Notes: a model not told the origin generated them from the letters alone. A stretch of 57,020 nucleotides of DNA from Candidatus Hydrothermarchaeota archaeon (GCA_046760505.1 JBHIEG010000013.1:1-57020); one strand, 5' to 3'. Positions 5,898 through 53,065 are shown, numbered from the stretch's first letter. Translations and numbers: made by a program.

Positions 5898-6374
5898 ATG
5901 ATTGCCTTTACATTAGATAATCTAAAACTGTTGTGCGAAGTTATAGATAAGAGTTATCCCATAGAGGCATGCGGAGTTATCATCGGGATCAAGAATGATG
6001 CTTGGATCGCGAAGGAAATAGTCCCCACACGCAATGAACTAAAATCCAGTATAAGATTTAAAATACCTGCTGAAGACTTTTATAACGCGGATAAAAAAGC
6101 TGAGAAGCTAGGATTCGAAATAATAGGAATTTTTCATTCCCATATTGATCAAAAGCCATATCTATCAAAGTATGATGTTGAATACGCCAAATGGACACCG
6201 GAACAAGTTTGGGTAGTGATAGGCTACTATAAAAAAGAGAAGAAAGCTGAGATGAAGGCTTTTCTCAAAGAAAAGGAAATAAAAATAAAAATAGGAGAAA
6301 AGATCTTTAATGAAGTCGTTTTTGAGTGCTCTAAATGGAATCTTGATGCTCATCGAGCGAAGATTTTGCCGTAG
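5898..6374 (+). CDS. JAMM/MPN+ (M67) metalloprotease, desampylase-like
   Basis: YPIEACG and HSHIDQKPYLSKYD (E...HSH-x7-S-x2-D); start moved to ATG 5898 after GGGGGT. Confidence 0.85.
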   Translation: MIAFTLDNLKLLCEVIDKSYPIEACGVIIGIKNDAWIAKEIVPTRNELKSSIRFKIPAEDFYNADKKAEKLGFEIIGIFHSHIDQKPYLSKYDVEYAKWTPEQVWVVIGYYKKEKKAEMKAFLKEKEIKIKIGEKIFNEVVFECSKWNLDAHRAKILP

Positions 6375-7354
6375 ATATCTTCGGCGACAAAATCGTAGGG
6401 ATATCCGTATGTAGCTTTCTCTTGCTCAGTAAGGGGCCTTATCTTTGCCCAAGGAGATCCGATTTTTCCACTCCATATGGTAAGGGCTCTTGCGCTTATC
6501 TCGGTTCCATCTCTATCTGATCCTGCAATTACGATTACATCTGTTCCTGTCCCGAATGGATTATTTACTCTGTTTATTATTCCTCTTCCCCAGCCAGGAT
6601 TCATGTTAGAAACCTGTATGTCCATTTTGCTCAGAATTTCCTTTGTTATCTTGTTTGCTACTGGTCCCCCAACCAAGATTAGGTTGTAGTTTTCCTTGTC
6701 TTCTTGGGTAACCTCTTCATCGGTTATGATAGATACGCTTGTTTTAGCCATTCCCTCTATGTAATTCTTGAGTAACCTTGCACTCTCTAAATCCTTGGAT
6801 GGCGCTGACTTCCCGTAAACTATCTTTGTTTTACCGTAATCGAAGAATCTTATGGAAGGTACGACTTTTATCTTTACGGTTTTGGATTCGGTAAAGACTT
6901 TTTCGTAAGTACCTTCAGGCTCCTGTGCTGAGGCCTCCACCGTTATGGTGTAGGTCCCTCCCCTCTTTGGAATCAATGTCCAGGATACGTGCTTAGTCTC
7001 TTGAGCCTGCAATTCTCCTGGAATCGTTTGTGTCTTAGGCTCGATCGTTTTAATCCAGACAGGTACTTTTATTTTTCCCCTCATATTTGTTAAGTATGGA
7101 GCGAGTTTTGGGGTGTTGTAGAATATAACATCTATCTTGTTGTATCCTCTGGCCTGTTCTATTACGGCAGGATATTCCTCTTCAATAAGTTCTATTATAT
7201 CAGGACTCTTTACATTAATGCTGAATTCTGGTTTTGCTCCTCCTCCGTACTTATGACAACTGTAACAGGTCTGAGTGCCCTTTACGAACTCAGGTTTCGA
7301 AAGTGCTGGTGCCATCAAAAGCAATACCGCAAAAAGTATTGCGAAGCGTTTCAT
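6350..7354 (-). CDS. Secreted monoheme c-type cytochrome with Ig-like middle and S-layer-type C-terminal domain
   Basis: Signal peptide MKRFAILFAVLLLMAPALS; CYSCH; KIVYGKSAPSKDLESA, NLILVGGPVANKIT, VIVIAGSDRDGT typical of Methanococcales/Thermococcales-type S-layer domains; start at 7354 after GAAGGTGG. Confidence 0.7.
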   Translation of the reverse strand: MKRFAILFAVLLLMAPALSKPEFVKGTQTCYSCHKYGGGAKPEFSINVKSPDIIELIEEEYPAVIEQARGYNKIDVIFYNTPKLAPYLTNMRGKIKVPVWIKTIEPKTQTIPGELQAQETKHVSWTLIPKRGGTYTITVEASAQEPEGTYEKVFTESKTVKIKVVPSIRFFDYGKTKIVYGKSAPSKDLESARLLKNYIEGMAKTSVSIITDEEVTQEDKENYNLILVGGPVANKITKEILSKMDIQVSNMNPGWGRGIINRVNNPFGTGTDVIVIAGSDRDGTEISARALTIWSGKIGSPWAKIRPLTEQEKATYGYPYDFVAEDIYGKIFAR

Positions 7355-7467
7355 TAAACCACCTTCTGTGAGGTTAAAATGCATCATATTTAACTTTATC
7401 TATGCTCCATGAAAATGAGAAACAAATAAATTTTATCTTATGAAATGAGTAAATTAAATGATGGATC

Positions 7468-9114: not shown

Positions 9115-9690
9115 ATGATTATGGAGCATTTTGAAGATGGCTCTAATAATGTAAATCTTTTTGAATCTCTTAAAAAAGTTGAGAGAGATCTTGGAAGAAA
9201 ATTAACTCCAGTAGAGAGGATAATACTGACTACAGACGGCTCAATAACAACTATTTTAGAATCTTTAAGCGGAGAAAAGGTAAATGTGAGGACCGTACTC
9301 CAGAGAGTAATTAAAAGCGATAAGGAAATATCAAATTCATTGAGTATAAGAGAAGGCAGCGATGTGAATGAAAGGATAGTTATTCTGGAGAGCAAGTATC
9401 CCCTTGTTTACGCAAAATCCTACACGCCTTTATCTATTTTGGAACCTTGGTTTATGGATAACATAATGAAAGAAGACATTCCCATAGGAAGAATAATAAG
9501 AAAACTGAAGATGGAGATCAGAAGAGATCTTGAAAGAATTTTCATGACGAATGCAAACAGAAACATATCAAAACTCCTGGAAACGCAAGAAAATGAGAGA
9601 TTAATTTCTCGATCATACTTGATATTCTACAAAAAAAAGAAACTTCTACACATAACAGAAGTTTTTTCACCCAAGATAAACTCTTTTTGA
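9115..9690 (+). CDS. Chorismate pyruvate-lyase (UbiC)/DUF98-like protein
   Basis: RIILTTDGSITTILE, LVYAKSYTP, DIPIGRII, ITEVF. Confidence 0.75.
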   Translation: MIMEHFEDGSNNVNLFESLKKVERDLGRKLTPVERIILTTDGSITTILESLSGEKVNVRTVLQRVIKSDKEISNSLSIREGSDVNERIVILESKYPLVYAKSYTPLSILEPWFMDNIMKEDIPIGRIIRKLKMEIRRDLERIFMTNANRNISKLLETQENERLISRSYLIFYKKKKLLHITEVFSPKINSF

Positions 9691-15885: not shown

Positions 15886-16152
15886 ATGAATGAAATAGCT
15901 GAAATGACCATTAACGAAGATTTGTGTATTGGATGTGGAAACTGCGTTGTTACATGTCCGGTTAACACAAAGGAATCAGACGATGCAAAGTACGGCAAGG
16001 GTCCTACGGAAGAGTTAACCATTACCATGGTGATAAACGGAAAGGCGAGTATTATAAATCCAGAGAAATGTACCCTTTGCGGCATGTGCGTTGATGCATG
16101 CCCTACTGAAGCAATATTCGTGCCAGAAAAGAAAAAGAAGAAAGAAGCGTGA
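15886..16152 (+). CDS. fwdG: Formylmethanofuran dehydrogenase subunit G (2x[4Fe-4S])
   Basis: CIGCGNCVVTCPVN...GKGP...CTLCGMCVDACP; first gene of fwd cluster. Confidence 0.85.
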   Translation: MNEIAEMTINEDLCIGCGNCVVTCPVNTKESDDAKYGKGPTEELTITMVINGKASIINPEKCTLCGMCVDACPTEAIFVPEKKKKKEA

Positions 16153-16156
16153 TATA

Positions 16157-16537
16157 ATGGCTATAGAAGTATATCTTATTACTGGAAGAAGCGTTAAGCA
16201 GGGAGAATCGATGGAAAAGGGGAAAATTTTCAGTAATTATACCGAATCAGCAGCTATTTGCGAATTAGATTCATCAGATATGGAAAAATTGAAAATTAAG
16301 GATGGAGATACAGTTAAAGTTAAAACTGAATATGGAGAAGTAGTTGTTAAGGCAGTCGCATCGAAGAAGAGACATCCAAGCGTTGCATTTATCCCTATGG
16401 GCCCCTGGGCAAATGCAGTTGTAGATCCTGCCACAGACTATACAGGAATGCCTTCCTTTAAAGGAGTCAAGGCTAAAATAGAAAGTACAGGAGAAAAGGT
16501 ACTGAATGGAGTTGAATTGATAAAATCGTTTAGGTGA
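16157..16537 (+). CDS. fwdD: Formylmethanofuran dehydrogenase subunit D
   Basis: LITGRS.KQG, FIPMGPWAN, TGMPSFKG; start moved to ATG 16157. Confidence 0.92.
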   Translation: MAIEVYLITGRSVKQGESMEKGKIFSNYTESAAICELDSSDMEKLKIKDGDTVKVKTEYGEVVVKAVASKKRHPSVAFIPMGPWANAVVDPATDYTGMPSFKGVKAKIESTGEKVLNGVELIKSFR

Positions 16538-17835
16538 AAAAAATGATGATTAGCGATGTCGTTTGCACGTTCTGTGGTTGCCTATGCGATGATATACAGG
16601 TTAAGGTAGAAAATAATGAGATAGTAGAAACGAGACACGCATGCATCATAGGTCACACCAAGTTAGTTTCTCACAAAGAGCATAGAATTAAAGCTCCTTT
16701 GGTAAGAAAGAACGGCGAATTAAAAGAAACAAGTATGGATGAGGCGATAAATAGAGCTGCTGAAATATTGAAAAACTCTCATTATCCCCTGCTATATGGA
16801 TGGTCATCTACCTCATGCGAGGCAATTTCAAAAGGAGTGGAACTTGCAGAGTATTTAGGTGGAGCTATAGATCCAACCACTTCTGTTTGTCATGGGCCCA
16901 CCGTCTTAGCGGTACAGGCGGTAGGAGCATCCGGAGCCACTCTGGGAGAGATTAGACACAGAGCCGATTTGGTAATATTCTGGGGGTGCAATCCTACACA
17001 AGCACATCTGAGACACATGTCGAGGTATTCTGTTTTTCCCAGAGGAATTTTTGTGAAAAGAAGAAAACAGAGAAAAATAGTGGTTGTAGACATAAGAGAA
17101 ACTACCACTTCTAAGCTGGCTGATGACTTCATCAAGATAAATCCAGGCGAGGACTATGAACTCATAGATGCGTTGAGAGTAGCGGTTAACAAAGGGGAAA
17201 TACCTTATCCAGAGGTAGGAGGAGTAGCAAGGGAAAAAATATACGAACTAGCTGAAACGATGAAATCAGCAAGATTTGGAGTGATATACTTCGGAATGGG
17301 CCTTACCATGAGTAGAGGCAAACATAGAAACATTGACAATGCCGTATCTTTAGTAAGAGACCTCAACAACTACACGAAGTTTACCATAACCCCGATGAGA
17401 GGTCATTACAATGTAACAGGATCCGGCACTACAATGGCGTGGCTTACTGGTTTTCCATTCGCCATAGACTTCAGCATGGGATATGCGAGGTTTAATCCTG
17501 GGGAAACTGCTTCTAACGACATTCTTCAAAGGGAAGAATGTGATTCAGCGCTTATAGTTGCATCAGATCCTGCTGCCCACTTTCCAAAGCAAGCGGTAAA
17601 ACATCTAGCCAATATTCCTGTGATAACCATAACTCCTCATAGAAATTTGACAACTGAGATTTCTGAAGTTATTTTTCCATGCGCAATAGCCGGAATAGAG
17701 TGCGAGGGAACTGCTTACAGGATGGACGCAGTGCCACTAAGATTGAGAAAAATTGTGAATCCACCAGAGAATTGTCTTCCAGACGAAGAAATACTAGACA
17801 TGGTTCTCCGAAGGATTAAGGAGGGACAACAATGA
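16534..17835 (+). CDS. fwdB: Formylmethanofuran dehydrogenase subunit B (Cys-ligand form)
   Basis: CTFCGCLCDD, SVCHGP, WGCNP..AH.RHMSRYS, PMRGHYNV, GTAYRMD. Confidence 0.95.
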   Translation: MKKMMISDVVCTFCGCLCDDIQVKVENNEIVETRHACIIGHTKLVSHKEHRIKAPLVRKNGELKETSMDEAINRAAEILKNSHYPLLYGWSSTSCEAISKGVELAEYLGGAIDPTTSVCHGPTVLAVQAVGASGATLGEIRHRADLVIFWGCNPTQAHLRHMSRYSVFPRGIFVKRRKQRKIVVVDIRETTTSKLADDFIKINPGEDYELIDALRVAVNKGEIPYPEVGGVAREKIYELAETMKSARFGVIYFGMGLTMSRGKHRNIDNAVSLVRDLNNYTKFTITPMRGHYNVTGSGTTMAWLTGFPFAIDFSMGYARFNPGETASNDILQREECDSALIVASDPAAHFPKQAVKHLANIPVITITPHRNLTTEISEVIFPCAIAGIECEGTAYRMDAVPLRLRKIVNPPENCLPDEEILDMVLRRIKEGQQ

Positions 17836-19550
17836 AAAACGAATTGTTGATCAAGAATGGTATAGTGATCGATCCTTTAAACAATATAATGGGCGAAAAG
17901 ATGGATATTGCCATAAAAGATGGCAAGATAGTAGAAGAAGTAAGCAAAAATGCAAAGGTGATAGATGCCAGCGGCAAGTTAGTTGTTCCAGGAGGTGTAG
18001 ATTCTCACAGCCATGTAGCAGGGAGCAAGGTTAATGTGGGAAGAATAATGAGACCAGAAGACGGAAGAAAGATGCGTGAATCTAAAACAGATGTCTTGAG
18101 GTCTCAGGGAGGTTTTTCTGTTCCAACAACAATTACAACAGGGTATAGATACGCTAAAATGGGCTATACCACTGTAATGGAAGCTGCTATGCCTCCATTG
18201 AAGGCAAGACATACGCAAGAAGAAATAAGGGACACTCCAATTTTGGATGAGGCTGCTTTCACAGTAATGGGAAACAACTGGTTTGTAATGGAGTATCTCA
18301 AGGAGAAAGATTATGATAAATGCGCTGCTTATGCCGCTTGGCTCTTAAAGGTAACTCGGGGTTACGCAATTAAACTAGTAAATCCCGGTGGTGTAGAAGC
18401 CTGGGGCTTTGGAAAAAATGTTAATTCATTGGACGATCCCGTACCAAATTTTGAAATAACCCCCAGAGAAATAATTGAAGGGCTTACGAAAGTAAACGAA
18501 GTGTTGAGGCTTCCTCATTCAGTGCATGTCCATTGCAATAGACTTGGTCAGCCAGGGTGTGCCACCATAACTCTGGAGACATTTAAGGTGCCGAAAGATG
18601 TTAAATTGAATACTGTAAGCGATAGAGAGCATATCTTTTATGTTACTCATGTACAATTCAATGCCTTTGGAGGAACAGGCTGGAGAGACTTTGAATCCGG
18701 CGCAAAAGAACTGGCTGATTATGTAAATCAGAACAAGTATATGGTTATCGATACAGGATGTGTAACATATGATAACACTACCACGATGACTGGAGATGGA
18801 CCTGCTGAATTTAACATTCAAAGACTTGCAGGTTATAAATGGGTAAATGGAGACGTCGAGGTGGAATGTGGTTCAGGAATAGTTCCATTCGTTTTCATGC
18901 CAAAAAATCCTGTTCACTCAGTTCAATGGGCAATAGGACTTGAACTGGCGCTTTTAGTAGATGATCCCTGGCGGGTTATAATAACTACAGATCATCCGAA
19001 CGGAGGACCTTTCATTAGGTATCCCAGAGTTTACGCCTGGCTAATGAGCAAGAAATACAGGGAAGAATGGCTGAAAAAAAGTCATCCATGGGCTACCGAA
19101 AGATCTTCTCTCGCAACCATAGAAAGAGAATATACTTTAGAAGAAATCATAATAAACACCAGAGCCGCGACAGCCAAGATTTTGGGATTAAATAGGATCA
19201 AGGGTCACCTTGGAATTGGTGCTGACGCAGATGTGGCCATATACGATGTAAATCCAGAAGAATTTGACTTTTCAAACAGCCCAAGAGAAGTTGAAAATAT
19301 ATTCTCCAATGCACTTTACACGATAAAGGGTGGAGAAATCATTGTTAAGGAAAAACAAATAGTCAACGTAATCCAGGGAAGCACATTCTGGTTAAATCCA
19401 AAAGTTGACAAAGAACTTGAAGAAGAGGTGTTGAAAGAAGTTAAAGAGAAATTCAAGGCCTATTATACGATAAACTTTAATAACTACGCGGTTGATCTTG
19501 CATATCTTAAAAATCACAGAGAAATTCCAATTGTGACCGGAGTTGCGTGA
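17832..19550 (+). CDS. fwdA: Formylmethanofuran dehydrogenase subunit A
   Basis: DSHSHVAGSKVNVGR, KLVNPGG, QWAIGLEL, TTDHPNGGPF. Confidence 0.95.
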   Translation: MKNELLIKNGIVIDPLNNIMGEKMDIAIKDGKIVEEVSKNAKVIDASGKLVVPGGVDSHSHVAGSKVNVGRIMRPEDGRKMRESKTDVLRSQGGFSVPTTITTGYRYAKMGYTTVMEAAMPPLKARHTQEEIRDTPILDEAAFTVMGNNWFVMEYLKEKDYDKCAAYAAWLLKVTRGYAIKLVNPGGVEAWGFGKNVNSLDDPVPNFEITPREIIEGLTKVNEVLRLPHSVHVHCNRLGQPGCATITLETFKVPKDVKLNTVSDREHIFYVTHVQFNAFGGTGWRDFESGAKELADYVNQNKYMVIDTGCVTYDNTTTMTGDGPAEFNIQRLAGYKWVNGDVEVECGSGIVPFVFMPKNPVHSVQWAIGLELALLVDDPWRVIITTDHPNGGPFIRYPRVYAWLMSKKYREEWLKKSHPWATERSSLATIEREYTLEEIIINTRAATAKILGLNRIKGHLGIGADADVAIYDVNPEEFDFSNSPREVENIFSNALYTIKGGEIIVKEKQIVNVIQGSTFWLNPKVDKELEEEVLKEVKEKFKAYYTINFNNYAVDLAYLKNHREIPIVTGVA

Positions 19551-19559
19551 GGTGTCGAT

Positions 19560-20375
19560 ATGAAAGAGATTGTACTTACGCCTAAAGAACTCCCAAAACT
19601 TCCCATACATGCAGAAATCATAAAACCTGACGCATTCGCTGGTAAAACAATAAAAGAGATAGGAGAATTGAAGGTTCAAATAGGCAATAAACAGACTGAT
19701 CTCTCAGAAATCTTTTCTGTTAATGGAGAAACCTCTGAAGATCCCTCAGATTTAAGAATAGTTATTGATGGAGACGTATCAAGAGTAAAAAGAATCGGAG
19801 AGGAGATGAAGACCGGAGAGATTTTGATCAAGGGAAATGCAGGCATGTTCACCGGAGCAAGAATGTCAGGAGGTACTTTGATTGTGGAGGGAAACGCGGA
19901 TGCATGGTTTTGTCAGGAGATGAAAGGTGGAGAAGCGATAGTAAAAGGAAATGCAGCTAACTACGTTGGGTCTTCATATAGGGGTGAATGGACAGGCATG
20001 AAAGGTGGAAAAATTACCATAGAAGGTAATGCAAAGAGCGACGTCGGAGAGTACATGTCAAGCGGAACAATAATAGTAAAAGGAGACGTCGAATATTTCG
20101 CTGGAATCCACATGCGTGGTGGAACCATCATTATAGAGGGAAATGCGCTAGGAAGAGTTGGAAGCGAGATGGACAAGGGAACTATCTTGGTTAAGGGAGA
20201 AATTAAGAATCCTTTGCCAGGATACAAATACGAAGGCGCCGTCAAAGATCCTGAAGTTGGTGGAATCGTCCATAAGGGAGAGTATCATAAGTTTATCGCA
20301 GATATCTCGAATCCCAAGGCAAAGGGAGAGATATACGCACTCGCAGATAAAAACAATCACCTTTTACCGAAATAA
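19560..20375 (+). CDS. fwdC: Formylmethanofuran dehydrogenase subunit C
   Basis: GDVSRVKRIG, repeated GxxMxGGxIxVxGNA beta-helix, SYRGEWTGMKGG. Confidence 0.95.
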   Translation: MKEIVLTPKELPKLPIHAEIIKPDAFAGKTIKEIGELKVQIGNKQTDLSEIFSVNGETSEDPSDLRIVIDGDVSRVKRIGEEMKTGEILIKGNAGMFTGARMSGGTLIVEGNADAWFCQEMKGGEAIVKGNAANYVGSSYRGEWTGMKGGKITIEGNAKSDVGEYMSSGTIIVKGDVEYFAGIHMRGGTIIIEGNALGRVGSEMDKGTILVKGEIKNPLPGYKYEGAVKDPEVGGIVHKGEYHKFIADISNPKAKGEIYALADKNNHLLPK

Positions 20376-20389
20376 AAGTAGGGTTTACC

Positions 20390-21346
20390 CTACTCCTTTC
20401 TTTTGTAAATTATTCCACCGATAACTGCGATAATCACCATCAGGGCGATTACAACTCCTATAACTGCGTAATTCGGCTTCTCCTTTTGCACTACAACTTT
20501 CTGTTTTATTCCAATTGCTCCTTCGGCTTTGCTTAACGCATCAAAGGCAGAATCAAGATTTTCTGCAAATTTCGCTAGGATGAATTTATGCCACAAAGGT
20601 GGTAGGGAGTCCTTAATCTGTTTTGCCTGCGATAAATACTGTTTTGCAGCAATAACATCTTTGCCCTGTACCTCAGCTTTTTTTATCTCTTCTTCCACCT
20701 TAATTATTTCCTTTTTTAATTCCTCACTTCGATTTAATATTTCCTTGGCTTTTTCCGGAATGTCTGTTGGAGCCACCCCTACCTCTTTGCTATGGCAGTT
20801 ACCGCAAGTGGATGGAATCTCTTCTTTTCTTAATATTCTCGCTGAATGTACCTGATGACAGGTAACACAACTAGGAGCCAACTTACCTTTAACAAGGGCA
20901 GAGTAATGCTCGCTTTGAACCATCTGATTGTATTCTTCAGAATGACATTCTCTACATTTTTTAGGCACATTTTTATAGTAAACCTCGCTTGTTATAACAT
21001 CCGAGGTTTGAAGTCCGATATGGGCATCTTCTTTCTTTGTTTTAGTTGGATCTCCACCATGGCATTTATCGCAAGTAACATCATTTATGCCGTGTACAGA
21101 GAATTTCCACTCTTCGTAATTCTCCATAGCCTGTCTTTGAATGAAGTCGATGTGACATTCAACCGAGCAAGATACCCCGCGAGCAAGGTGATCAAGTCTT
21201 ATCTTGTCGTAGTACTTCTCTCTCTCGGAAATTTGAGTAGTTAAATCTTTGTGGCAGTCAATACACGTATTTGAATAAACTACGGTTGGAGAGAGGATTA
21301 TTATCAAAAGTAAAGCGCTTTTCAGGTAAATTGACCTCGAAGCCAT
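20390..21346 (-). CDS. Secreted, C-terminally anchored multiheme cytochrome c (5 CxxCH + 1 CxxxCH)
   Basis: Signal peptide; CIDCH, CSVECH, CDKCH, CRECH, CVTCH, CGNCH; helical stalk; C-terminal TM followed by KRKE. Confidence 0.9.
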   Translation of the reverse strand: MASRSIYLKSALLLIIILSPTVVYSNTCIDCHKDLTTQISEREKYYDKIRLDHLARGVSCSVECHIDFIQRQAMENYEEWKFSVHGINDVTCDKCHGGDPTKTKKEDAHIGLQTSDVITSEVYYKNVPKKCRECHSEEYNQMVQSEHYSALVKGKLAPSCVTCHQVHSARILRKEEIPSTCGNCHSKEVGVAPTDIPEKAKEILNRSEELKKEIIKVEEEIKKAEVQGKDVIAAKQYLSQAKQIKDSLPPLWHKFILAKFAENLDSAFDALSKAEGAIGIKQKVVVQKEKPNYAVIGVVIALMVIIAVIGGIIYKRKE

Positions 21347-21409
21347 GGCACCACCGTGAAGTTTTGACTAAAATCTTATTGAGAATTATTTAAGGTTTTT
21401 CCTCGAGAA

Positions 21410-22288
21410 TTATTTTTGATCATGACACTTGGTGCAATCACTTATTGATGAATGGTGATCCTTTTTATCCGGATGGCATGCAAGACAAACATCTCTGGCC
21501 TCTTTTCTTATGTGAACAACATGGCAGCTTGTGCAGTCTCCATGCGCGCCTATCATGTGGAGCGTTGTATTCGGAGTCACATGACATTCCTTGCAAGATA
21601 GAGGTTTATCTCTTTCATGGGGTCTGTGACATAGCTTGCAGTCTGATTCTCTATGTGCTTGAGGAGTTATGCTCAGTATTGGGGCTTCTTTTTCTTCGTG
21701 GCACAGCAAGCATTCTTTTCTTCTTGGGAGTAGCGTTGTGGTTTCTTCTTCAGATGCCAAAAATTCATGACATGTTAAGCAGTGGAACTGCATCTTGCTT
21801 ACTTGAAATTCTATCTTATGACATCCGTTACAGGATGCTTCAGTGGGGATAAACCTGTGAATTCTTTCTCCATGGCAGTCCAAACATTCTTTCTCTAATT
21901 CTTCCACATGTTTCTTGTGACCCACCGTTTCTTTAACGAAAGGCCACCTAGGATCGTTTGCATAATGGCACTCCTCACAGTATTTACTTTCAACTTCTGC
22001 ATGTTTCGTTATCTCTTTAGGTCTCAGCACTATGAATCTGTACAGTTGAATCATATTCTGAGTCATACTCTGTTTGTGACACTCATGACAGTTAACTTCG
22101 CTGTGCTTGGTATTATCCCATCTATTCCAAGCCTTTTCCATTAAGTGACAAGTTCTGCAAAAACTTGGATCGTTTTCTACATAATCCATGGTGGTGTATG
22201 CGGTAACACTGATTATTGCTAGTATAAAGAGGAGCGCTACTATTAAAATCGAGAAGGGCTTTTTTGATGCCCTTACTACCGGATTCAT
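21410..22288 (-). CDS. Dodecaheme cytochrome c with N-terminal NapC/NrfH-like membrane-anchored domain (paralog 1)
   Basis: N-terminal TM, FCRTCHLM (CxxCHxM), 12 CxxCH counted in 292 aa. Confidence 0.9.
   Translation of the reverse strand: MNPVVRASKKPFSILIVALLFILAIISVTAYTTMDYVENDPSFCRTCHLMEKAWNRWDNTKHSEVNCHECHKQSMTQNMIQLYRFIVLRPKEITKHAEVESKYCEECHYANDPRWPFVKETVGHKKHVEELEKECLDCHGERIHRFIPTEASCNGCHKIEFQVSKMQFHCLTCHEFLASEEETTTLLPRRKECLLCHEEKEAPILSITPQAHRESDCKLCHRPHERDKPLSCKECHVTPNTTLHMIGAHGDCTSCHVVHIRKEARDVCLACHPDKKDHHSSISDCTKCHDQK
21447..21976. repeat. 530-bp direct repeat, copy 1 (inside cytochrome paralog 1)
   Basis: Matches 22576-23105 at offset 1129; sense and antisense translations identical. 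Confidence 0.9.
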
Positions 22289-22544
22289 TCATTCCACCCT
22301 TAATCCTAAACGAATTGATTTCTCCATCGATATAATCCTGTTATATGATTTTTTGCTCTCTTTCAATTAAAAATCAGTAAATTAGACTATAAAAATCTTT
22401 AGGTTCAATTCAAATTATTTTTAAATTAATTTTAGACTTATTTTAGATTAATTTGAGGAAAAAGGAAAGATTTCATGCTTCTAGGAACAAATAATTGAGT
22501 TATATTTTGATTTACCCATATTTTAATGTTCGGTAAAAGTTACG

Positions 22545-23426
22545 TCAAGAATGACAAGGTGAGCATCCTTTCATAGATGAATGGTGATCCTTTTTATCCG
22601 GATGGCATGCAAGACAAACATCTCTGGCCTCTTTTCTTATGTGAACAACATGGCAGCTTGTGCAGTCTCCATGCGCGCCTATCATGTGGAGCGTTGTATT
22701 CGGAGTCACATGACATTCCTTGCAAGATAGAGGTTTATCTCTTTCATGGGGTCTGTGACATAGCTTGCAGTCTGATTCTCTATGTGCTTGAGGAGTTATG
22801 CTCAGTATTGGGGCTTCTTTTTCTTCGTGGCACAGCAAGCATTCTTTTCTTCTTGGGAGTAGCGTTGTGGTTTCTTCTTCAGATGCCAAAAATTCATGAC
22901 ATGTTAAGCAGTGGAACTGCATCTTGCTTACTTGAAATTCTATCTTATGACATCCGTTACAGGATGCTTCAGTGGGGATAAACCTGTGAATTCTTTCTCC
23001 ATGGCAGTCCAAACATTCTTTCTCTAATTCTTCCACATGTTTCTTGTGACCCACCGTTTCTTTAACGAAAGGCCACCTAGGATCGTTTGCATAATGGCAC
23101 TCCTCGCAAACCTCATTATCGATTTCGGTATGCTTTTTTATCTCCTTCGGTCTGAGCACGATGAAGTTGTAAAGTTGGACCATATTCTGGGTCATGCTTG
23201 GTATATGGCACGTGTGGCAAGTTAATTCACTATGCTTTGATCGATCCCATTTTACCCAAGCCTCTTCCATGAGGTGGCACATCTTACAAAAATTTGGATC
23301 ATTTTCTATGTAGTCGTATGTCTTATAGGCACTAACGCCAATTGTCGATAGCAATATTGCTACTATTACCGAGAATATGATCAATTTCTTCCTCCATCTT
23401 TGTGTAAGAGGCACTAACGGACACAT
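22545..23426 (-). CDS. Dodecaheme cytochrome c with N-terminal NapC/NrfH-like domain (paralog 2)
   Basis: N-terminal TM, FCKMCHLM, 12 CxxCH counted in 293 aa. Confidence 0.9.
   Translation of the reverse strand: MCPLVPLTQRWRKKLIIFSVIVAILLSTIGVSAYKTYDYIENDPNFCKMCHLMEEAWVKWDRSKHSELTCHTCHIPSMTQNMVQLYNFIVLRPKEIKKHTEIDNEVCEECHYANDPRWPFVKETVGHKKHVEELEKECLDCHGERIHRFIPTEASCNGCHKIEFQVSKMQFHCLTCHEFLASEEETTTLLPRRKECLLCHEEKEAPILSITPQAHRESDCKLCHRPHERDKPLSCKECHVTPNTTLHMIGAHGDCTSCHVVHIRKEARDVCLACHPDKKDHHSSMKGCSPCHS
22576..23105. repeat. 530-bp direct repeat, copy 2 (inside cytochrome paralog 2)
   Basis: Matches 21447-21976. Confidence 0.9.
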
Positions 23427-23648
23427 TTTTCATCACTTTAGATTTTAAGAATCGCAAACAAATTATAATCCTGTTATATCTTTTTATATCCTATTTTATC
23501 GCATTTAAACGAAGATCGAGAGTAATGTATATAAAAGTTTTTAGGTTTATTTTGGATCAGTTTCATATCAATTTGAGATTTCAAAAAAGAGAAATTTAAC
23601 TGAAAGGACCATGTAAGCAAGAATACGCTATAAGAAAAGTATATTAAT

Positions 23649-28210: not shown

Positions 28211-28885
28211 TTAAATTCTCCATCGCAACTCTATCTTTCCATTGTGTAAAGCACTTCCAACCAAAACAGCGTGGATACCAATATTCTTCAATTTAAAAAG
28301 ATCTGTTTTGTCTCTTATACCACCACCAACAATGATTTCTTTCTCAGTTTTGGTTATGTATTTGGTGAAATCATCCCATATACCTGAGAATCTACCAACG
28401 TGATAAAGATCAAGAAGTATGAAACCTTCAACAAATTTTTCGAATCTTTCCAGTATTTCAAATGGATCTTTAAAGTAATTTTTAGAGGAAATGATTTTTC
28501 CTTTGTACATGTCAATGCTCATCAGAATATCTTTACACTCATGTTTCTCGAGATTTCCATAGTCTTGAAAGGTTTCTGTTGCGATTATTACTTTCGATGC
28601 AATTTCGGAGATATCTTTCATCTCATCTACTTTTTTTATTCCTGCATCTATCCATGTTTTTACATGACTGCTTATCTCTTCCAATAATTGTATTTGGACT
28701 TCGCCCCCTGTTATTGCATCGAGATCAGCAACATATACAATTGGAGCTCCCAAGTTTTTAATGAACTTCAGTGGGTCTCCTTCTGGACATAGTCTAGAGT
28801 TTATTACCTTATATTCATCTCTCTTTCCGCCAATCGCCCTTACTACCTTTCCATTCAGTAGATCTATTACAGGTACTATCTTCAT
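28211..28885 (-). CDS. HisA/HisF-related TIM-barrel protein (type found near C1-cofactor genes)
   Basis: MKIVPVIDLLNGKVVRAIGGKRDEY, YVADLDAI, VGGGIR, LVGSALHNG; start moved to 28885. Confidence 0.8.
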   Translation of the reverse strand: MKIVPVIDLLNGKVVRAIGGKRDEYKVINSRLCPEGDPLKFIKNLGAPIVYVADLDAITGGEVQIQLLEEISSHVKTWIDAGIKKVDEMKDISEIASKVIIATETFQDYGNLEKHECKDILMSIDMYKGKIISSKNYFKDPFEILERFEKFVEGFILLDLYHVGRFSGIWDDFTKYITKTEKEIIVGGGIRDKTDLFKLKNIGIHAVLVGSALHNGKIELRWRI

Positions 28886-28943
28886 GTTTTTTTGAAGATA
28901 AAAGGTTATATAACCCTTTATCGAGTTAGGTAATGGGGAACTC

Positions 28944-29654
28944 ATGCTGTTGCTCGTAAGCCCGAAGGATAAAAAAGAGGCAATTGAGGCTTACTCAGGT
29001 GGAGCAGATATTATTGACATAAAAAATCCAAAGGAGGGCTCATTGGGCGCTAGTTTTCCATGGTTGATCAGGGATATAATAAGTTCAATCCCTGCTCATG
29101 TGAAAACGAGTGCCACGGTTGGTGACGTGCCGTATAAACCTGGAACTGTATCGTTTGCGGCGCTAGGCGTCGCTGTTACCGGAGTGAATTTCGTAAAAGT
29201 AGGGTTGTATGGCACAAAAAACAAAGATCAATCATTGGAAGTCATGAAAAGTGTAGTGAGATCAGTAAAGGATTTCAATGAAGAAATAAATGTTGTAACC
29301 GCTGGATATGGAGACGCATTTAGGGTAGGAGCAGTTGATCCTCTAGAAATACCATCAATAGCCATAGAATCAGGGTCTGATGTTGCAATGGTAGATACTG
29401 CGATCAAAGACGGAAAATCCCTTTTTGACTTTATGAGCGTTAAAGAACTATACGATTTTGTGGATGAAGCAAAATCAGGTGGATTAATGGTTGCTCTCGC
29501 TGGCTCTTTAGGAAAAGGGGACATACCGCTTCTTAAGAAGTTGAAACCGGATATTATAGGAATAAGAGGGGCTGTATGTACAGGGGGGGACAGGGACAAC
29601 GGCAGGATAACGAGAGATGAGGTCAAAAAGTTCTTAGAATTAATTCGTGATTAA
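28944..29654 (+). CDS. mfnB: (5-formylfuran-3-yl)methyl phosphate synthase (methanofuran biosynthesis)
   Basis: MLLLVSP, GGADIIDIKNPKEGSLGA, SATVGD, MVDTAIKDGK, ALAGSL, GIRGAVC. Confidence 0.93.
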   Translation: MLLLVSPKDKKEAIEAYSGGADIIDIKNPKEGSLGASFPWLIRDIISSIPAHVKTSATVGDVPYKPGTVSFAALGVAVTGVNFVKVGLYGTKNKDQSLEVMKSVVRSVKDFNEEINVVTAGYGDAFRVGAVDPLEIPSIAIESGSDVAMVDTAIKDGKSLFDFMSVKELYDFVDEAKSGGLMVALAGSLGKGDIPLLKKLKPDIIGIRGAVCTGGDRDNGRITRDEVKKFLELIRD

Positions 29655-34697: not shown

Positions 34698-35423
34698 CTA
34701 TCTATAAATATCTCCAACAATTAAACCATCCTTCAATCGAACTATCCTATCTGCCTTTTCAGCCATCTCAGAATCGTGGGTTACCATTATTATGGTTTGA
34801 CCTTTTTCCTTATTCAATTTGAGTAAAAGATCGATTATTTCATGGGAAGTTTTTGTGTCCACATTGCCAGTAGGCTCGTCTGCCAATATAAGCGAAGGAT
34901 GATTGGCAAGTGCTCTTGCTATTCCCACCCTCTGTTGCTCCCCTCCTGATAAAAGTCTTGCCTTTGTATTCAGCCTCTCTCCTAGACCTACTTCTTCTAA
35001 CAATTTTTTAGATTTTTCTCGGGCTTCTTCATCCGAAATACCTGCCATCATCATCGGAAGCATGACATTCTCCAGTGCACTTAGATCATTCAGCAAATTA
35101 TATGCTTGGAAAACGAATCCAATTTCTTTCAGTCTTAAATCAGATCTTTGTTTTTCATCCAATTCAGAAATATCATCGCCCCTCAAGTATATCTCACCTG
35201 ACGTGGGAGAATCAAGCATTCCGATAAGGTTTAAAAGCGTTGATTTTCCAGATCCCGAAGGACCCATGATGGCTACAAACTCTCCCTTTCTAACCCTAAG
35301 ATTAACTCCTCTTAAAACTTTTATCAACAATTCTCCAACTTGGTAATCTTTCACCAGATCTTTGGTGATTACGATATATTCATCACGGCTGAAGTTACTC
35401 CCGTCATTACCTCCATTATTCAT
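34698..35423 (-). CDS. LolD/MacB-type ABC ATP-binding protein
   Basis: GPSGSGKST, IGFVFQAYNL, LSGGEQQRV, ADEPTGNVD; start moved to 35423 (ATGA overlap with permease stop). Confidence 0.92.
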   Translation of the reverse strand: MNNGGNDGSNFSRDEYIVITKDLVKDYQVGELLIKVLRGVNLRVRKGEFVAIMGPSGSGKSTLLNLIGMLDSPTSGEIYLRGDDISELDEKQRSDLRLKEIGFVFQAYNLLNDLSALENVMLPMMMAGISDEEAREKSKKLLEEVGLGERLNTKARLLSGGEQQRVGIARALANHPSLILADEPTGNVDTKTSHEIIDLLLKLNKEKGQTIIMVTHDSEMAEKADRIVRLKDGLIVGDIYR

Positions 35424-36589
35424 CTTTCCAACCCTCTTATGGCGTCGATTATGTTTATCCTGCTCGCTTTTATGGCAGGATAGGTTCCTGCTATGATGCA
35501 AGTAAGAAATGTTACAAGAGAAGATGTTAAAGCTACATTTACGCTATAAACAGCGCTGAAATAACCGTACACAGGATCATACATAGGATGGAAAATTAAA
35601 TATTGGATTACGGAAAAACCAAATATGTTGCCGAATATTACGCCAAGAATTCCAATTAAGATTGCTTCTCCCAAGAAAACATATAAAATAAACGAGTTTC
35701 TTCCCCCTATAGCCTTCAATATTCCTATCTCATGGGTTCTGTTGATCACCGTTATGTACATCATGACCACTACCGCTATTGATGCCGCGAAAAGAGTTAT
35801 TCCTCCCACGATGAGAGAAACTAAGTAATACTGCTCCATCAAAGCCCTGACAAATTCTACCTTGTCTATCCAGGTCTTCACCTTTCCATGAACGTTTTGC
35901 TGCATAACAAGGTATTTCATTTTATCTACTTCTTCTGGATCCGTTACCCTGATGGCAATTTCAGTCGCATCATCTCCAAGACCAAGAACATCCCTTAACT
36001 CATCCAGATTTAATATTAACATTCCGCTATCGATGAAATCTAAATCGGTATGAACCAAACCTTTAATCTTGTAGTCTCTTTCGACGCCGTTTTTGAAAAT
36101 AACTTGAACTTTATCTCCTACCTTAGCGTTTAACTTTTCTGCTAAATTATCTCCCAAAATGATACTTTTCCTATCGTTATCCGTTATGAAACTGCCTTCT
36201 TTAATTTTTGCAGAGATTATAGTGACCCTGTTTTCCTTTGATGGAATGATTCCAAGTATGCTACATCTCTCATCCTCAGTTTTTCTTATCACAATTCCCT
36301 CTGAATTAATCCTAGGAGACTCTCCCAGTGCTCCGGGCATCAAGTTTAGCTTTTTTTCTACACTTTTTACGTTTGTAATATAGTCTTCGTCCTCTCCGGG
36401 CTCGACGATCAAGTGACCTGAGACTATGTTTACCGTTCTGTCTATCATTGTCCTTTCCCACCACTTCATCGTCCCCATGTAGACCATGAAGGTGGTTGAT
36501 CCTACGGATATAGCTAAAACAAGCAAGGCAAACATTTTCCAGTTCGTTTTCAGATCTTTAGTGATTAAGAAAAACTCAGTCCTCATCAC
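35420..36589 (-). CDS. FtsX/LolC-E/MacB-type ABC permease (paralog A)
   Basis: TVINRTHEIGILKAIG, GTYPAIKASR. Confidence 0.9.
   Translation of the reverse strand: MMRTEFFLITKDLKTNWKMFALLVLAISVGSTTFMVYMGTMKWWERTMIDRTVNIVSGHLIVEPGEDEDYITNVKSVEKKLNLMPGALGESPRINSEGIVIRKTEDERCSILGIIPSKENRVTIISAKIKEGSFITDNDRKSIILGDNLAEKLNAKVGDKVQVIFKNGVERDYKIKGLVHTDLDFIDSGMLILNLDELRDVLGLGDDATEIAIRVTDPEEVDKMKYLVMQQNVHGKVKTWIDKVEFVRALMEQYYLVSLIVGGITLFAASIAVVVMMYITVINRTHEIGILKAIGGRNSFILYVFLGEAILIGILGVIFGNIFGFSVIQYLIFHPMYDPVYGYFSAVYSVNVALTSSLVTFLTCIIAGTYPAIKASRINIIDAIRGLER
35664..35770. repeat. 107-bp identical tract, copy 1
   Basis: Identical to 36824-36930 (offset 1160). Confidence 0.9.
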
Positions 36590-37770
36590 ATACCCCTAAT
36601 AGCTTCAATTACGTTCAGTCTGCTAGCCTTAATCGCTGGATATATCCCTGCGAGTATGCATGTAACCATAGTTACCACGGATGACGTGATACCAACGTTT
36701 AAATCGTAGACCGCTGATATGTATCCGTAGATAGGATCATAGATTGGATTTAACTCAAAATATTTAATGATAAAAAATCCTAGGATGTTTCCAAAAATTG
36801 TCCCAAGCAACCCTATGACTATGGCTTCTCCCAAGAAAACATATAAAATAAACGAGTTTCTTCCCCCTATAGCCTTCAATATTCCTATCTCATGGGTTCT
36901 GTTGATCACCGTTATGTACATCATGACCACAATTGCTACAGCAGCTGCGAACAATGTTATACCGCCAAACAGAGCCATTTGATCTTTTGAAAGTTCTATC
37001 ACGGCTAAAATAAAGGCTAATTTATCTTTCCAAGTCTTCACCTTTCCATGAACATTTTGCTGCATGATGAGATATTTCATATTGTCTACATTATCTAAGT
37101 TGGTTGTTCTAATGACTATTTCAGTTGCCTGATCTCCTAGATTCAAGACATCCTTTATTTCATCCAGACCGACTATGACCATGTTGCTATCGATTTCGTC
37201 GAGATCTGTGTGGATTATGCCCTTGATGATGTAGTCTCTTCTTTCTCCATTTCTGTAGGTAATTCTGACTTTGTCTCCTAATTTAGCTTTAATTTTATCA
37301 GCAAGCTTATTTCCAATAACAATGTTCTCTCTATCTTTGTCTGATATGAAAGAACCCTCTTTTATTTTTTTGGAAAGTATGGTTACGGTATCTTCTTTTG
37401 ATGGAGTAATACCCTGTAAAGTGCAGGTTTCTAACTCATTTTTCCTGCCAATAATAGCGTCTGTATCTATTCTAGGTGATATGCCGGTTACTCCGGGAAT
37501 CAAGAGGATTTTTTTCTCTACCGTTTTTATTCCAGATATGTACTTCTTATCTTCCAGCGGTTCTACTATAATGTGTCCAACATGGGTGTTTACTGTTCTG
37601 TCTATCATTTTATCGACGAAATCTGTCATGAAACCCATCATCACCGCGTAATTCGCAGCGCCAATGCTTATCGCTAAAACTAAAAGGGCAACCATTTTTC
37701 TGTATGTTTTTACATCTCTGAATATCAAGAAAAGAACTGTTTTAAAAGAACTCACTTCTTTCTTCTCCAT
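36586..37770 (-). CDS. FtsX/LolC-E/MacB-type ABC permease (paralog B)
   Basis: TVINRTHEIGILKAIG, GIYPAIKASR. Confidence 0.9.
   Translation of the reverse strand: MEKKEVSSFKTVLFLIFRDVKTYRKMVALLVLAISIGAANYAVMMGFMTDFVDKMIDRTVNTHVGHIIVEPLEDKKYISGIKTVEKKILLIPGVTGISPRIDTDAIIGRKNELETCTLQGITPSKEDTVTILSKKIKEGSFISDKDRENIVIGNKLADKIKAKLGDKVRITYRNGERRDYIIKGIIHTDLDEIDSNMVIVGLDEIKDVLNLGDQATEIVIRTTNLDNVDNMKYLIMQQNVHGKVKTWKDKLAFILAVIELSKDQMALFGGITLFAAAVAIVVMMYITVINRTHEIGILKAIGGRNSFILYVFLGEAIVIGLLGTIFGNILGFFIIKYFELNPIYDPIYGYISAVYDLNVGITSSVVTMVTCILAGIYPAIKASRLNVIEAIRGM
36824..36930. repeat. 107-bp identical tract, copy 2
   Basis: Identical to 35664-35770. Confidence 0.9.
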
Positions 37771-38993
37771 AGGAGTATTCCTATAATTAAGAGCAAAATG
37801 ACCAATCCAGCTAAGATTAAAGAAACAGCACCTTCATCTTTATAAACAGTTAAGTTGAGAGGCTCTGATAGGATGTGCTCCCCGAAATCGTCGCTGTACT
37901 TCACGATTAGGGTGTAGGGGATAGTCCCTCTTTCAGAGGGAGTAAAGGTGAATACCGCTGGGGCATCTTCATCAGGCTCTATTTTACCAAGAAAAGCCTT
38001 CCTTGTACCTTGGAAGGGCAGGTCTACCTCTGCGTATACGCTTTTTGCATCATCCTTTCCCACGTTCTCCAGTCTTACAATGAGGTTACAGTGTTCCCCC
38101 TCTATCACCTTAGAAGGATCGGTGGTTATGCTTGCTATATTCAACTCTGCCTTTCCCCTTATCTGCAAGCCTACCATTTCTATCTGATTCATGGTTAAGT
38201 CGTCTTCGTTGGTAAAATTCAAAATCACAGGGACGGATTGAAGGCCCAGTTCTGCTTTATCGTTGGAGATGAGATTAAATGAAATATTTTTGCTCTGGTA
38301 TACATCTAGTTCTTTTATAAATATGTTATCAGGCCCGGTAGATGAAAATTCTGTCCCTTCCAGTTTTATTTGAACATTGATATCCTTTACCTTGGCCTCG
38401 CCTGTATTCTTCAGTGTCATTTTAATGCTAAAAGCCTTACCAGGTTCTACATATTCTGGAATTTCTTTATCAACGGTTAACGCAGGTGTTTTAGCGTAGA
38501 CTCTTACAGGGATAGCCCAGTTGTTCTTGTATGTAATCTTATCCCAGTTCTTCCATGATGGTCCAAGAGTACTGGGGGCTTCGTAAGACAAGAAATAACC
38601 TGTGTATTCGGTATGCAAATTTAAACTGTAAGTTTCTGCCTTTGCAAACGACATCACGGAAACAACGAACGAAACAGCGTACGTATCTTCTGGATTCATA
38701 GTTCCTAACCTCATTCTACCGTTTTCTACCTTTATAAAATTGTTTCCCTCGAGATCGATCAGAATGTCTTTAGCAGGAGCTCCACCATTGTTTTTTATCA
38801 CTATTTTTAAAATTCCTGAGTCTCCTGGTTTCAATTTCTCTGTAGTGCCTGTCAATTCATAATCAACCACGAGTGCTGTGGCAGAAGGTTGGTAAATAGA
38901 GGTTGGTATCTGGGCTAAAGCTAAAAAAGGTAGGATTATTGTTGCTAAGAATAAAAATATAGATAACATTGATTTTTTTTCACATTCAGACAT
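37752..38993 (-). CDS. COG1361 S-layer-domain (Ig-like repeat) cell-surface protein
   Basis: Signal peptide, repeated PG..(L/F).I.(I/L)KN.G...AK units, C-terminal TM + WRRKK; heads the ABC exporter operon. Confidence 0.8.
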   Translation of the reverse strand: MSECEKKSMLSIFLFLATIILPFLALAQIPTSIYQPSATALVVDYELTGTTEKLKPGDSGILKIVIKNNGGAPAKDILIDLEGNNFIKVENGRMRLGTMNPEDTYAVSFVVSVMSFAKAETYSLNLHTEYTGYFLSYEAPSTLGPSWKNWDKITYKNNWAIPVRVYAKTPALTVDKEIPEYVEPGKAFSIKMTLKNTGEAKVKDINVQIKLEGTEFSSTGPDNIFIKELDVYQSKNISFNLISNDKAELGLQSVPVILNFTNEDDLTMNQIEMVGLQIRGKAELNIASITTDPSKVIEGEHCNLIVRLENVGKDDAKSVYAEVDLPFQGTRKAFLGKIEPDEDAPAVFTFTPSERGTIPYTLIVKYSDDFGEHILSEPLNLTVYKDEGAVSLILAGLVILLLIIGILLWRRKK

Positions 38994-45835: not shown

Positions 45836-45908
45836 ACGACAACCCTTTAACAGATAGATAACTTACAGTATTTAACTCTTAGTGATCGACTATCGAAGGG
45901 TTAAAAAG

Positions 45909-50296: not shown

Positions 50297-51105
50297 ATTT
50301 TATCCGACCCTATGGGTCTGGCTTCGTTCCAGAAAAAATCATACATATTCTCCAGAGTGGATATTATATTCTGATCATTCGTCCAGATACCAAGAATTTC
50401 ACTGAGGTCCATTTTCTCTACATATGGAGAGGAAGAATGCAAGATCTCATTTCCGTCAACTATTACCATCCAAGAGTGAAAACCCTCATGTAACCTAATT
50501 TGAATGTGTTCCGGAATTAAATCAGCATCGTATTCACTTTCAGTTATCATTCTTGCTATGATCTGGGTACGAACCCTGTAAGATAGGAGCTTTTGACGAA
50601 TGCTTTCAAATTTTGAATCCTCTTGCTTACCTACTTGTATGAAAGGTGTAGCAATTTTAACTGTTTCTCTTGCGTTATCCAGCATTTCGAGGATCTTTTT
50701 TATCACATTTATCTTTCCTTTTACTACCCAAACCTGTCTGCCGACAGGAAGCGTTTTTGAATAGATGTTCTCTAGGTTTTGAGTAACTATTTCTTCCGCT
50801 TTTTGAAGTTCCTTCAAAATTTCCTGTATCGCGTTTCTGACTGCATACTTCGGTCTAACAGCCTTATAAACAATCGGTCTCCCTGGCTGTGACTCGACCC
50901 ACCCCTTTCGTTCCAAATCCTTCAAAACACTATAAAGCCTCGTATAAGGGATATCTGTTACGTCGCTAATTTCTCTGGGCGACATCAATCCTTTGATCAC
51001 GAGTGTTGCATAGGCATTGGACTCGTGTTCCGATAAACCAAATTGCCTAAGTGCTTTAGTAGTTTTTTCCAATTCTATGTTTTTTTCAACTTCCATTTCT
51101 ATCAT
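50293..51105 (-). CDS. TrmB-family transcriptional regulator
   Basis: FGLSEHESNAY, IPYTRLYSVL..LE.KGWV, GRP..Y. Confidence 0.88.
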   Translation of the reverse strand: MIEMEVEKNIELEKTTKALRQFGLSEHESNAYATLVIKGLMSPREISDVTDIPYTRLYSVLKDLERKGWVESQPGRPIVYKAVRPKYAVRNAIQEILKELQKAEEIVTQNLENIYSKTLPVGRQVWVVKGKINVIKKILEMLDNARETVKIATPFIQVGKQEDSKFESIRQKLLSYRVRTQIIARMITESEYDADLIPEHIQIRLHEGFHSWMVIVDGNEILHSSSPYVEKMDLSEILGIWTNDQNIISTLENMYDFFWNEARPIGSDKI

Positions 51106-51218
51106 ATTTCTATTTTTAAATTAAATTAGTTATTAAATTTTTTTAGTAAGATTTATATAAACTTTGTATTAAAAAATTTATCGATGATATAAGATGGTAT
51201 GAATGGAGGCGTGGAGAC

Positions 51219-53039: not shown

Positions 53040-53065
53040 TATACTTTTATTTTTTCTAAATAATC

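Follow-up and report, generated by a model that had tools for sequence, protein, structure and literature searches.

The 57,020-nt stretch of DNA from a Candidatus Hydrothermarchaeota archaeon analysed here (GCA_046760505.1, JBHIEG010000013.1:1-57020; hereafter the window, with coordinates counted from its first letter) carries three co-oriented genes for multihaem c-type cytochromes, cytC, cytB and cytA, which lie tail-to-tail with an operon encoding formylmethanofuran dehydrogenase (fwd) (Table 1). The listing of open reading frames (ORFs) and the motif counts gave 30 haem motifs over the three products, confirming the 12 + 12 + 6 motifs of a preliminary description made from the sequence alone, as well as its 14-bp spacing: the last base of the fwdC stop is 20375, and the cytA stop codon occupies 20390-20392. 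All the cysteines of cytB (24/24) and cytA (12/12) lie inside haem motifs; cytC holds 25 cysteines. In composition-preserving shuffles (10,000 per protein) the mean number of CxxCH motifs was 0.016-0.18 and the maximum 2-3; these counts and the existence of homologues rule out chance ORFs, and cytC, cytB and cytA are genuine multihaem cytochrome genes. Two or more CxxCH motifs were found in no further six-frame ORF of at least 60 amino acids across the window, and the tRNA and Rfam scans of the window gave no matches.

A chimeric join of the contig at ~20380, which would have undermined the preliminary description, was excluded because an independent public contig from an uncultured archaeon (L001) carries the same gene order, from ~11.1 kb (ABC transporter) to ~29.6 kb (mfnB) of the window, with 67-90% amino acid identity over the shared stretch, including fwdC, cytA, cytB and cytC; the GC content was also steady (0.40-0.41) through the fwdC/cytA junction. 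The inverted repeat found by eye in this junction is a possible two-way terminator.

Table 1 Positions of the cytochrome genes, the fwd operon and other features in the window.
Feature	Position	Strand	Description
cytC	22545-23426	minus	293 amino acids, 12 CxxCH; dodecahaem c-type cytochrome, N-terminal membrane helix, NapC/NirT (NrfH-like) head
cytB	21410-22288	minus	292 amino acids, 12 CxxCH; dodecahaem paralog of cytC, same architecture
cytA	20390-21346	minus	318 amino acids, 5 CxxCH + 1 CxxxCH; hexahaem, signal-like N-terminus, three-helix C-terminal domain, C-terminal membrane anchor (PNY variant of PGF-type tail)
Putative gene-conversion tract in cytB	21447-21976	minus	530 nt, 100% identical to the cytC tract; longest identical run of the alignment
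Putative gene-conversion tract in cytC	22576-23105	minus	530 nt, 100% identical to the cytB tract
16-nt near-palindrome	22331-22346	minus	Upstream of cytB
16-nt near-palindrome (same)	23464-23479	minus	Upstream of cytC
Inverted repeat	20377-20394		7 bp, 4-nt loop; between the fwdC and cytA stops, overlaps the cytA stop; read by eye
fwd operon	15886-20375	plus	Ferredoxin + fwdD, fwdB, fwdA, fwdC (Pfam and NCBIfam); not counted in the cytochrome module
Ferredoxin	15886-16152	plus	Small 2x[4Fe-4S] ferredoxin
fwdD	16172-16537	plus	
fwdB	16534-17835	plus	
fwdA	17832-19550	plus	
fwdC	19560-20375	plus	
mfnB	28944-29654		PF04476, E 1.3e-86; NF002573, 358.7 vs 341 bits

Both 12-haem proteins have a single N-terminal transmembrane helix, a trait of the NapC/NirT/NrfH proteins (cytB: hydrophobic 19-residue windows within residues 4-37 and helix 9-39 in the AlphaFold2 model; cytC: hydrophobic stretch at residues 11-36), and in both the first haem motif is of the NrfH type, CxxCHxM. 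The model of the NapC/NirT N-terminal region (PF03264) was matched with 32.9 bits by cytB and 34.3 bits by cytC, above its gathering score of 24.1, and phmmer aligned residues 19-73 of cytB, comprising the helix and the first two haem motifs, with the solved NrfH structure 2j7a_C (E 4.6e-6). The NapC/NrfH-like head assigned to these proteins in the preliminary description is thus well founded. The methionine of CxxCHxM (Met50 in cytB) was kept in 16 of the 18 aligned family members, and ten non-motif histidines were conserved too; from work on the NrfHA structure we take this methionine to mark the quinol-site haem of NrfH. The profile of the 12-haem family matched solved NrfH over the helix and two haems (E 5.7e-11) and, along residues ~100-290, the haem-chain proteins HmcA (1z1n, 2.3e-14), MtrA (6r2q_A, 1e-11) and GSU1996 (3ov0, 2.9e-8). 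A word-indexed search with the 12-haem protein yielded 18 relatives, the paralog of the window included. The nearest neighbours in a language-model atlas, which serve as a lead only, form several large bacterial clusters of NapC/NirT-named multihaem proteins of 267-307 amino acids, mostly from Nitrospirota and Myxococcota, and because of these clusters the NapC-headed 12-haem architecture is probably not rare.

The AlphaFold2 model of cytA is confident (mean predicted local distance difference test score, pLDDT, of 87.7) and contains helices at residues 196-226, 232-246, 257-277 and 293-317; hydrophobic stretches span residues 5-30 and 289-317, and basic residues are present in the C-terminal tail. 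The protein has 12 histidines, six within the haem motifs and six outside (residues 53, 85, 109, 147, 167 and 253). All six of the latter are conserved in an 8-row alignment of archaeal and Nitrospirota members, and four reach at least 97% conservation across an alignment of 60 rows. Six conserved non-motif histidines for six haems suggest that all the cytA haems have bis-His coordination without a catalytic site, and hence that cytA is a pure electron carrier and not an enzyme. The family is large (845 representatives at E ≤0.001, 31 at E ≤1e-30). A midpoint-rooted tree of 60 aligned members splits into two halves with weak support (58): one of 31 rows, in which CxxxCH is present in all except P0176, P0155, P0152 and P0157, the hydrophobic tail in all except P0176, and PGF occurs within the last 32 residues in 21 rows; and one of 29 rows, mostly with five haems, 23 of them missing the hydrophobic tail. 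The cytA of the window belongs to the 31-row half and carries the tripeptide PNY where PGF is expected, as does its L001 counterpart; the NCBIfam scans of the proteins of the window, L001, L004 and L006 reported no PGF-CTERM model. Complex prediction with cytB (residues 36-292) and cytA (residues 24-285) gave a score of 0.00 and a mark of 0.32, values that speak neither for nor against binding.

One scan of a genome collection with a 4-row alignment of 12-haem proteins returned 13 loci. Eight of them (L001-L008) encode a full-length 12-haem relative at 35-80% identity and were counted; the other five (L009-L013) were dropped as weak matches (23-25% identity) to other, mostly giant, cytochromes: the proteins of L010 and L011 proved to be giants with 27 and 45-51 haems, and gene calling in L009 was poor. 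A cytA-type gene adjoins the 12-haem gene in five of the eight loci, from archaea and Nitrospirota (L001, L004, L006, L007 and L008), and is absent from L002, L003 and L005. In L002 (Geoglobus) and L004, tetrahaem, 4Fe-4S and NrfD-type genes recognised by Pfam lie directly upstream of the 12-haem gene, the iron-sulfur (FeS) subunit of L002 reaching 206.8 bits against a DsrO cut-off of 200; in L005 (Geoglobus) and L006 (Archaeoglobus sp.) the upstream ORFs, compared by size and order, agree with these. The fullest version of the module seen is an eight-gene cluster on Archaeoglobi-type contigs (L004, 532-7442; L006, 1286-8133): tetrahaem, FeS and NrfD genes, a 10-haem NapC-headed paralog, the 12-haem gene, two hexahaem cytA-type genes (CxxxCH, PGF-type tail) and a dihaem class I cytochrome. 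In the two Nitrospirota loci a monohaem gene (scanned in L007 only) and a five-haem relative of cytA accompany the 12-haem gene, and in L003 the 12-haem gene stands alone. No recognisable terminal reductase adjoins the module in any of the eight loci, nor did the Pfam and NCBIfam scans of the window detect one.

The tree of the 12-haem proteins comprised 26 rows: the four window and L001 copies, one protein each from L002-L008, three distant paralogs to serve as outgroup and, of the 18 database hits, 12 (all except P0001, P0002, P0006, P0007, P0009 and P0018). The four window and L001 copies are set off from the remaining 19 members, all of which fall in a single group with good support that includes a well-supported Archaeoglobi clade; no direction of transfer is readable from the tree. 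The three genes of the window encode haem-dense proteins that are tethered to the membrane and face outward, and genes of this kind keep company with one another in archaea as well as in bacteria.

The history of cytB and cytC differs along their length. Outside the identical tract (Table 1), their 5' thirds are 60.6% identical and each pairs with its own L001 ortholog (85.6% and 77.3%), so the duplication predates the split between the organisms of the window and of L001; over the whole protein, cytC and its L001 ortholog share 79.5% amino acid identity. The L001 paralogs are 95.7% identical across their 3' 276 nt and 69% in the middle. These patterns argue for gene conversion that homogenised the haem-chain part separately in the two lineages. 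Because L001 shows the parallel pattern, the identical tract is read as biology in preference to an assembly artefact, which keeps a residual chance of being the source of the 530-nt repeat. Since the heads of the paralogs differ while gene conversion would keep the wire identical, the pair suggests that one output path is fed from two points of entry.

Each of the two 12-haem genes is preceded by its own AT-rich region, and the 16-nt near-palindrome lies about 45-60 nt ahead of each start codon (two exact matches in the window against 0.09 expected). A relative with one mismatch is found at 8630-8644 of L001, 60-74 nt upstream of L001_B; upstream of L001_C there is a relative with three mismatches, a stringency at which the matches do not exceed chance (4 against 1.6 expected). 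The near-palindrome is a candidate promoter or operator element.

Compared with known systems, cytB and cytC share with the tetrahaem quinol dehydrogenases NrfH, NapC and CymA the single N-terminal helix, the CxxCHxM first motif and a second motif ~20 residues on, but carry 12 haems instead of 4; moreover, the NrfA-type partner of the NrfH systems is missing in the window. Their haem chain resembles HmcA (16 haems), MtrA (10) and GSU1996 (12) in the profile matches described above and in its dense packing (~21-24 residues per haem), whereas these three proteins are soluble or sit inside a porin and have no NrfH head. A further likeness is to the Geoglobus and Archaeoglobus clusters (L002, L004, L005 and L006), whose 12-haem proteins are 38-44% identical over the full length and which in L004 and L006 include two cytA-type genes whose products have CxxxCH and a PGF-type tail. 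The Archaeoglobi loci differ from the window in their extra tetrahaem, FeS and NrfD genes, and L004 and L006 also in the 10-haem paralog and the dihaem class I cytochrome; the window lacks all of these and has its 12-haem genes as a tandem pair.

These four loci probably correspond to GAH_00283-00286 of Geoglobus ahangari and gace_1341-1344 of Geoglobus acetivorans. A passage on G. ahangari in PMC4600277 describes GAH_00283, with 4 haems, and GAH_00286, with 12, and proposes that GAH_00286 carries electrons at the outer surface to Fe(III) oxide; it also discusses a 12-haem protein annotated as the tetrahaem subunit of a nitrate/trimethylamine N-oxide reductase. The proposal for GAH_00286 is reviewed in a section of PMC8280799. 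Part of PMC4683180 reports that Methanoperedens expresses an adjacent pair of proteins with 5 and 12 CxxCH motifs and membrane helices (MPEBLZ_04299/04300), that the 12-haem member has homologues in Ferroglobus and Geoglobus, and that gace_1341-1344 have been proposed for Fe(III) reduction in G. acetivorans. Operons combining NrfD, FeS and multihaem subunits are proposed, in an extract of PMC7082337, to be menaquinol:cytochrome c oxidoreductases, and small multihaem cytochromes with a C-terminal anchor or PGF-CTERM are put forward as CymA-like candidates in anaerobic methanotrophic archaea (ANME) in a portion of PMC9012536. By the descriptions in these parts of PMC4683180 and PMC9012536, the small anchored cytochromes of ANME and Methanoperedens are like cytA in their C-terminal anchor or PGF-CTERM tail, their 5-6 haems and the adjoining 12-haem partner. 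The papers found for Ferp_1267-1270 mention them in passing. The S-layer-fused multihaem conduits of ANME differ from the module of the window in that cytA, cytB and cytC have no S-layer domain. With homologous modules in Geoglobus/Archaeoglobus and Nitrospirota loci, and the 12-haem protein of G. ahangari already discussed in the cited passage of PMC4600277, the proposal of an undescribed system is not supported; the cytCBA module is a further member of a known, still uncharacterised kind of archaeal and bacterial cytochrome module.

We consider that cytC, cytB and cytA probably constitute a self-contained module that transfers electrons at the outer face of the cytoplasmic membrane, between a lipid-soluble carrier pool and an outside acceptor (a probability of roughly 0.55). 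The module is best read as a putative conduit of the kind proposed for Fe(III)-reducing Archaeoglobales. One N-terminal helix would hold each 12-haem protein in the membrane, and its NrfH-type first haem, at the membrane surface, would exchange electrons with the lipid-soluble carrier. The remaining ~250 residues, with about one haem per 21 residues, would form a haem chain reaching away from the membrane and passing electrons to cytA. This hexahaem carrier, held in place by a C-terminal anchor of its own, would in turn deliver them to the outside acceptor: a mineral, a humic substance, a partner cell or a further carrier. Electrons could also flow in reverse (uptake). The fwd operon would be an independent convergent unit. 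Any link between one-carbon (C1) metabolism and the cytochromes would act at the level of the whole genome and by an indirect route, via ferredoxin or F420 and a membrane complex not seen in the window.

Several observations weigh against this assignment. Pfam and NCBIfam scans of the window detected no genes for quinone or methanophenazine synthesis, no ccm genes and no archaeosortase, and because of this the carrier pool and the haem attachment have to be assumed. The NrfH equivalog model (TIGR03153) was matched with 43.4 bits by cytB and 46.9 bits by cytC, against a cut-off of 134.2 and over positions 2-63 of 138, and the alignment with NrfH reaches the first two haem motifs only. The AlphaFold2 model of cytB is of moderate quality (mean pLDDT 72.9) and retrieved no solved structure at E ≤0.001. 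The fold search with cytA likewise gave nothing at this threshold: its best Foldseek matches, which point to catalytic enzymes of the NrfA/HAO type and comprise HAO, NrfA, octahaem nitrite reductase, MccA and OcwA, were weak (E 0.035-0.3, TM score 0.14-0.31). The named relatives of the 12-haem family are all 'hypothetical' or generically named, and none is characterised. In the Archaeoglobi loci, the NrfD-type protein, which has no equivalent in the window, could perform the quinol chemistry in place of the 12-haem protein. L002 and L005 were equated with GAH_00283-00286 by gene order and haem counts, not by sequence comparison, and by the same two features GAH_00286, gace_1341-1344 and MPEBLZ_04299/04300 were likened to the genes of the window.

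Two alternatives concern the roles of the proteins themselves. The 12-haem proteins might be wires and not carrier-pool dehydrogenases, electrons entering from a separate membrane complex (for instance NrfCD/DsrOP-like) encoded elsewhere. Such an arrangement would fit the NrfD-type and FeS subunits directly upstream in L002, L004 and probably L005 and L006, as well as an NrfH match confined to the helix and two haems and below the equivalog cut-off; we think it unlikely, given the retention of the CxxCHxM methionine with its presumed quinol-site role, the loci in which no NrfD gene lies beside the module (the window, L001, L003 and the two Nitrospirota loci), and the paralogs, whose differing heads on a homogenised wire fit a head with a specificity of its own. 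The module might also feed a reductase of soluble substrates (nitrite, hydroxylamine, sulfite or similar), or cytA might itself be such an enzyme in an NrfH/NrfA-like pair, with no extracellular electron transfer. NrfH with NrfA is the textbook pairing for an NrfH-type head, and cytA shows a partial Pfam match to cytochrome c552 (E 3e-6) besides the fold matches to HAO, NrfA, octahaem nitrite reductase and MccA. What renders this improbable is that cytA contains no CxxCK, scores very low with the NrfA models (TIGR03152, 28.8 vs 692.5 bits; PRK11125, 25.3 vs 595 bits), is ~130 residues shorter than the matched NrfA chains and finds those folds only above E 0.001, while its six conserved non-motif histidines would leave the six haems without an open coordination site and no reductase gene adjoins the module in the eight loci. 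The membrane-bound conduit thus remains the preferred interpretation of cytC, cytB and cytA.

A further alternative, the one advanced in the preliminary description, takes the adjacency for one system, in which formylmethanofuran dehydrogenase and the C1 pathway would have the cytochromes as their own dedicated route for electrons, out or in. The operon itself is clearly recognised: FwdB (595 bits, cut-off 327.8), FwdA (849.5, cut-off 392.75) and FwdC (289.1, cut-off 130.65) exceed the NCBIfam equivalog cut-offs, and FwdD has a molybdopterin-binding domain and reaches 138.9 bits, under the 175-bit cut-off of the tungsten-specific model. The tail-to-tail 14-bp adjacency is retained in L001, the window holds methanofuran- and methanopterin-related genes (mfnB, a HisA/HisF relative and a chorismate-lyase-like gene), and in the ANME models outlined in part of PMC9012536 the electrons derived from Fwd are thought ultimately to exit through multihaem cytochromes. 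However, the two units converge, with the inverted repeat read by eye between their stops, and the opposite flank of the cytochrome cluster is a housekeeping pair, an adenosine-type deaminase and an S-adenosylhomocysteine hydrolase. L001 is so close a relative (FwdA 90% and cytochromes 80% identical) that it counts as the same observation and gives no independent support for the link, and no fwd genes were present within the 6.7-21 kb fetched for each of L002-L008, which confines the linkage to one lineage among the eight loci. Fwd is a cytoplasmic enzyme that works with ferredoxin, whereas the cytochromes face outward, and a membrane complex coupling the two is not in the window. The position of the cytochromes beside fwd looks like neighbourhood and not a shared system, and we rate a dedicated Fwd outlet as the least probable of the readings considered here: a cytochrome conduit is plausible, a Fwd-linked undescribed system is not supported, and the cytochrome finding says nothing at present on the electron supply to Fwd.

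A broader proposal, in which a deep archaeal lineage with cytochrome-dependent energy metabolism would move electrons from or to the methanofuran/tetrahydromethanopterin C1 pathway across the membrane through the 30-haem conduit, with the diverged 12-haem heads on a gene-converted wire as two redox entry points, much as Geobacter employs separate inner-membrane cytochromes at different potentials, is doubtful; we place it below the wires fed by a separate complex and above the soluble-substrate reductase. If true, a group in which such processes are not known would transfer electrons to minerals or between species, or take them up to fix CO2. Should the module work as a conduit between a carrier pool and the outside, wiring of the type proposed for Fe(III)-reducing Archaeoglobales, and also for ANME, would be present in an archaeal lineage that is poorly sampled and has a methanogen-like set of C1 genes. 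The main value of the finding lies mostly in this host lineage and in the head/wire pattern of the paralogs, a natural experiment on the input specificity of NapC-type cytochromes; as a compact three-gene version without NrfCD-type subunits, cytCBA would also be simpler to test heterologously than the large clusters.

The window carries archaeal genes (CDP-archaeol synthase, mfnB, HMG-CoA reductase and an MJ-type S-layer domain). The FwdA search returned one relative at 90% identity and then at most 61% among the matches listed (Methanothermus, Methanothermobacter, Methanocaldococcus, Methanopyrus and Hydrothermarchaeaceae). In a FwdA tree of 25 rows (the window and 24 of the 120 listed matches, namely 18 that were named or were the 90% relative and 6 further top matches; 96 left out), the window sits on its own long branch outside the sampled Methanococci, Methanobacteria and Methanopyri, weakly joined to one further protein, Hydrothermarchaeaceae and Bathyarchaeia, a position to which no rank is assignable. 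FwdA also places the host outside the known ANME/Methanosarcinales groups, unlike ANME and Methanoperedens.

The presence of mfnB in the region, already noted in the preliminary description, was verified with both models listed in Table 1. Together with a HisA/HisF-family relative (28211-29654, mfnB included) and the chorismate-lyase-like gene (9115-9690, plus strand), it fits methanofuran cofactor synthesis, and presumably the set is also consistent with methanopterin synthesis. The same description had located an S-layer cytochrome at 6350-7354 as a possible end point of the wire. The ORF (6350-7387, minus strand) does encode a secreted 345-amino acid protein with an MJ-type S-layer C-terminal domain (PF05124, E 2.1e-17); its single CxxCH, near the N-terminus, uses its only two cysteines, so the protein is at most monohaem, which would be unusual for an S-layer-domain protein, and with one haem motif it is not a wire.

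Other genes were recorded along the window. A radical SAM/SPASM protein (53978-55438, plus strand) is nearest to AhbD (haem b synthase)/NirJ (311 bits against a cut-off of 500) and has an N-terminal extension of ~110 amino acids; the next gene encodes a B12-binding radical SAM protein (55435-56769, plus strand). This pair may relate to haem or another tetrapyrrole and is the only haem-related hint in the window outside the cytochromes. A lone nitrogenase-component-1-like protein (45882-47069, plus strand; PF00148; 209 bits with the NifE model, under its cut-off) is adjoined by thioredoxin-like and MoaD/SAMP-like genes, with no nifH or nifK nearby. A split MMPL-type transporter pair lies between two TrmB-family regulators at 48097-53869, together with a 606-amino acid CARDB/NPCBM surface protein, and a similar CARDB protein accompanies a MacB-type ABC system at 34698-38993.

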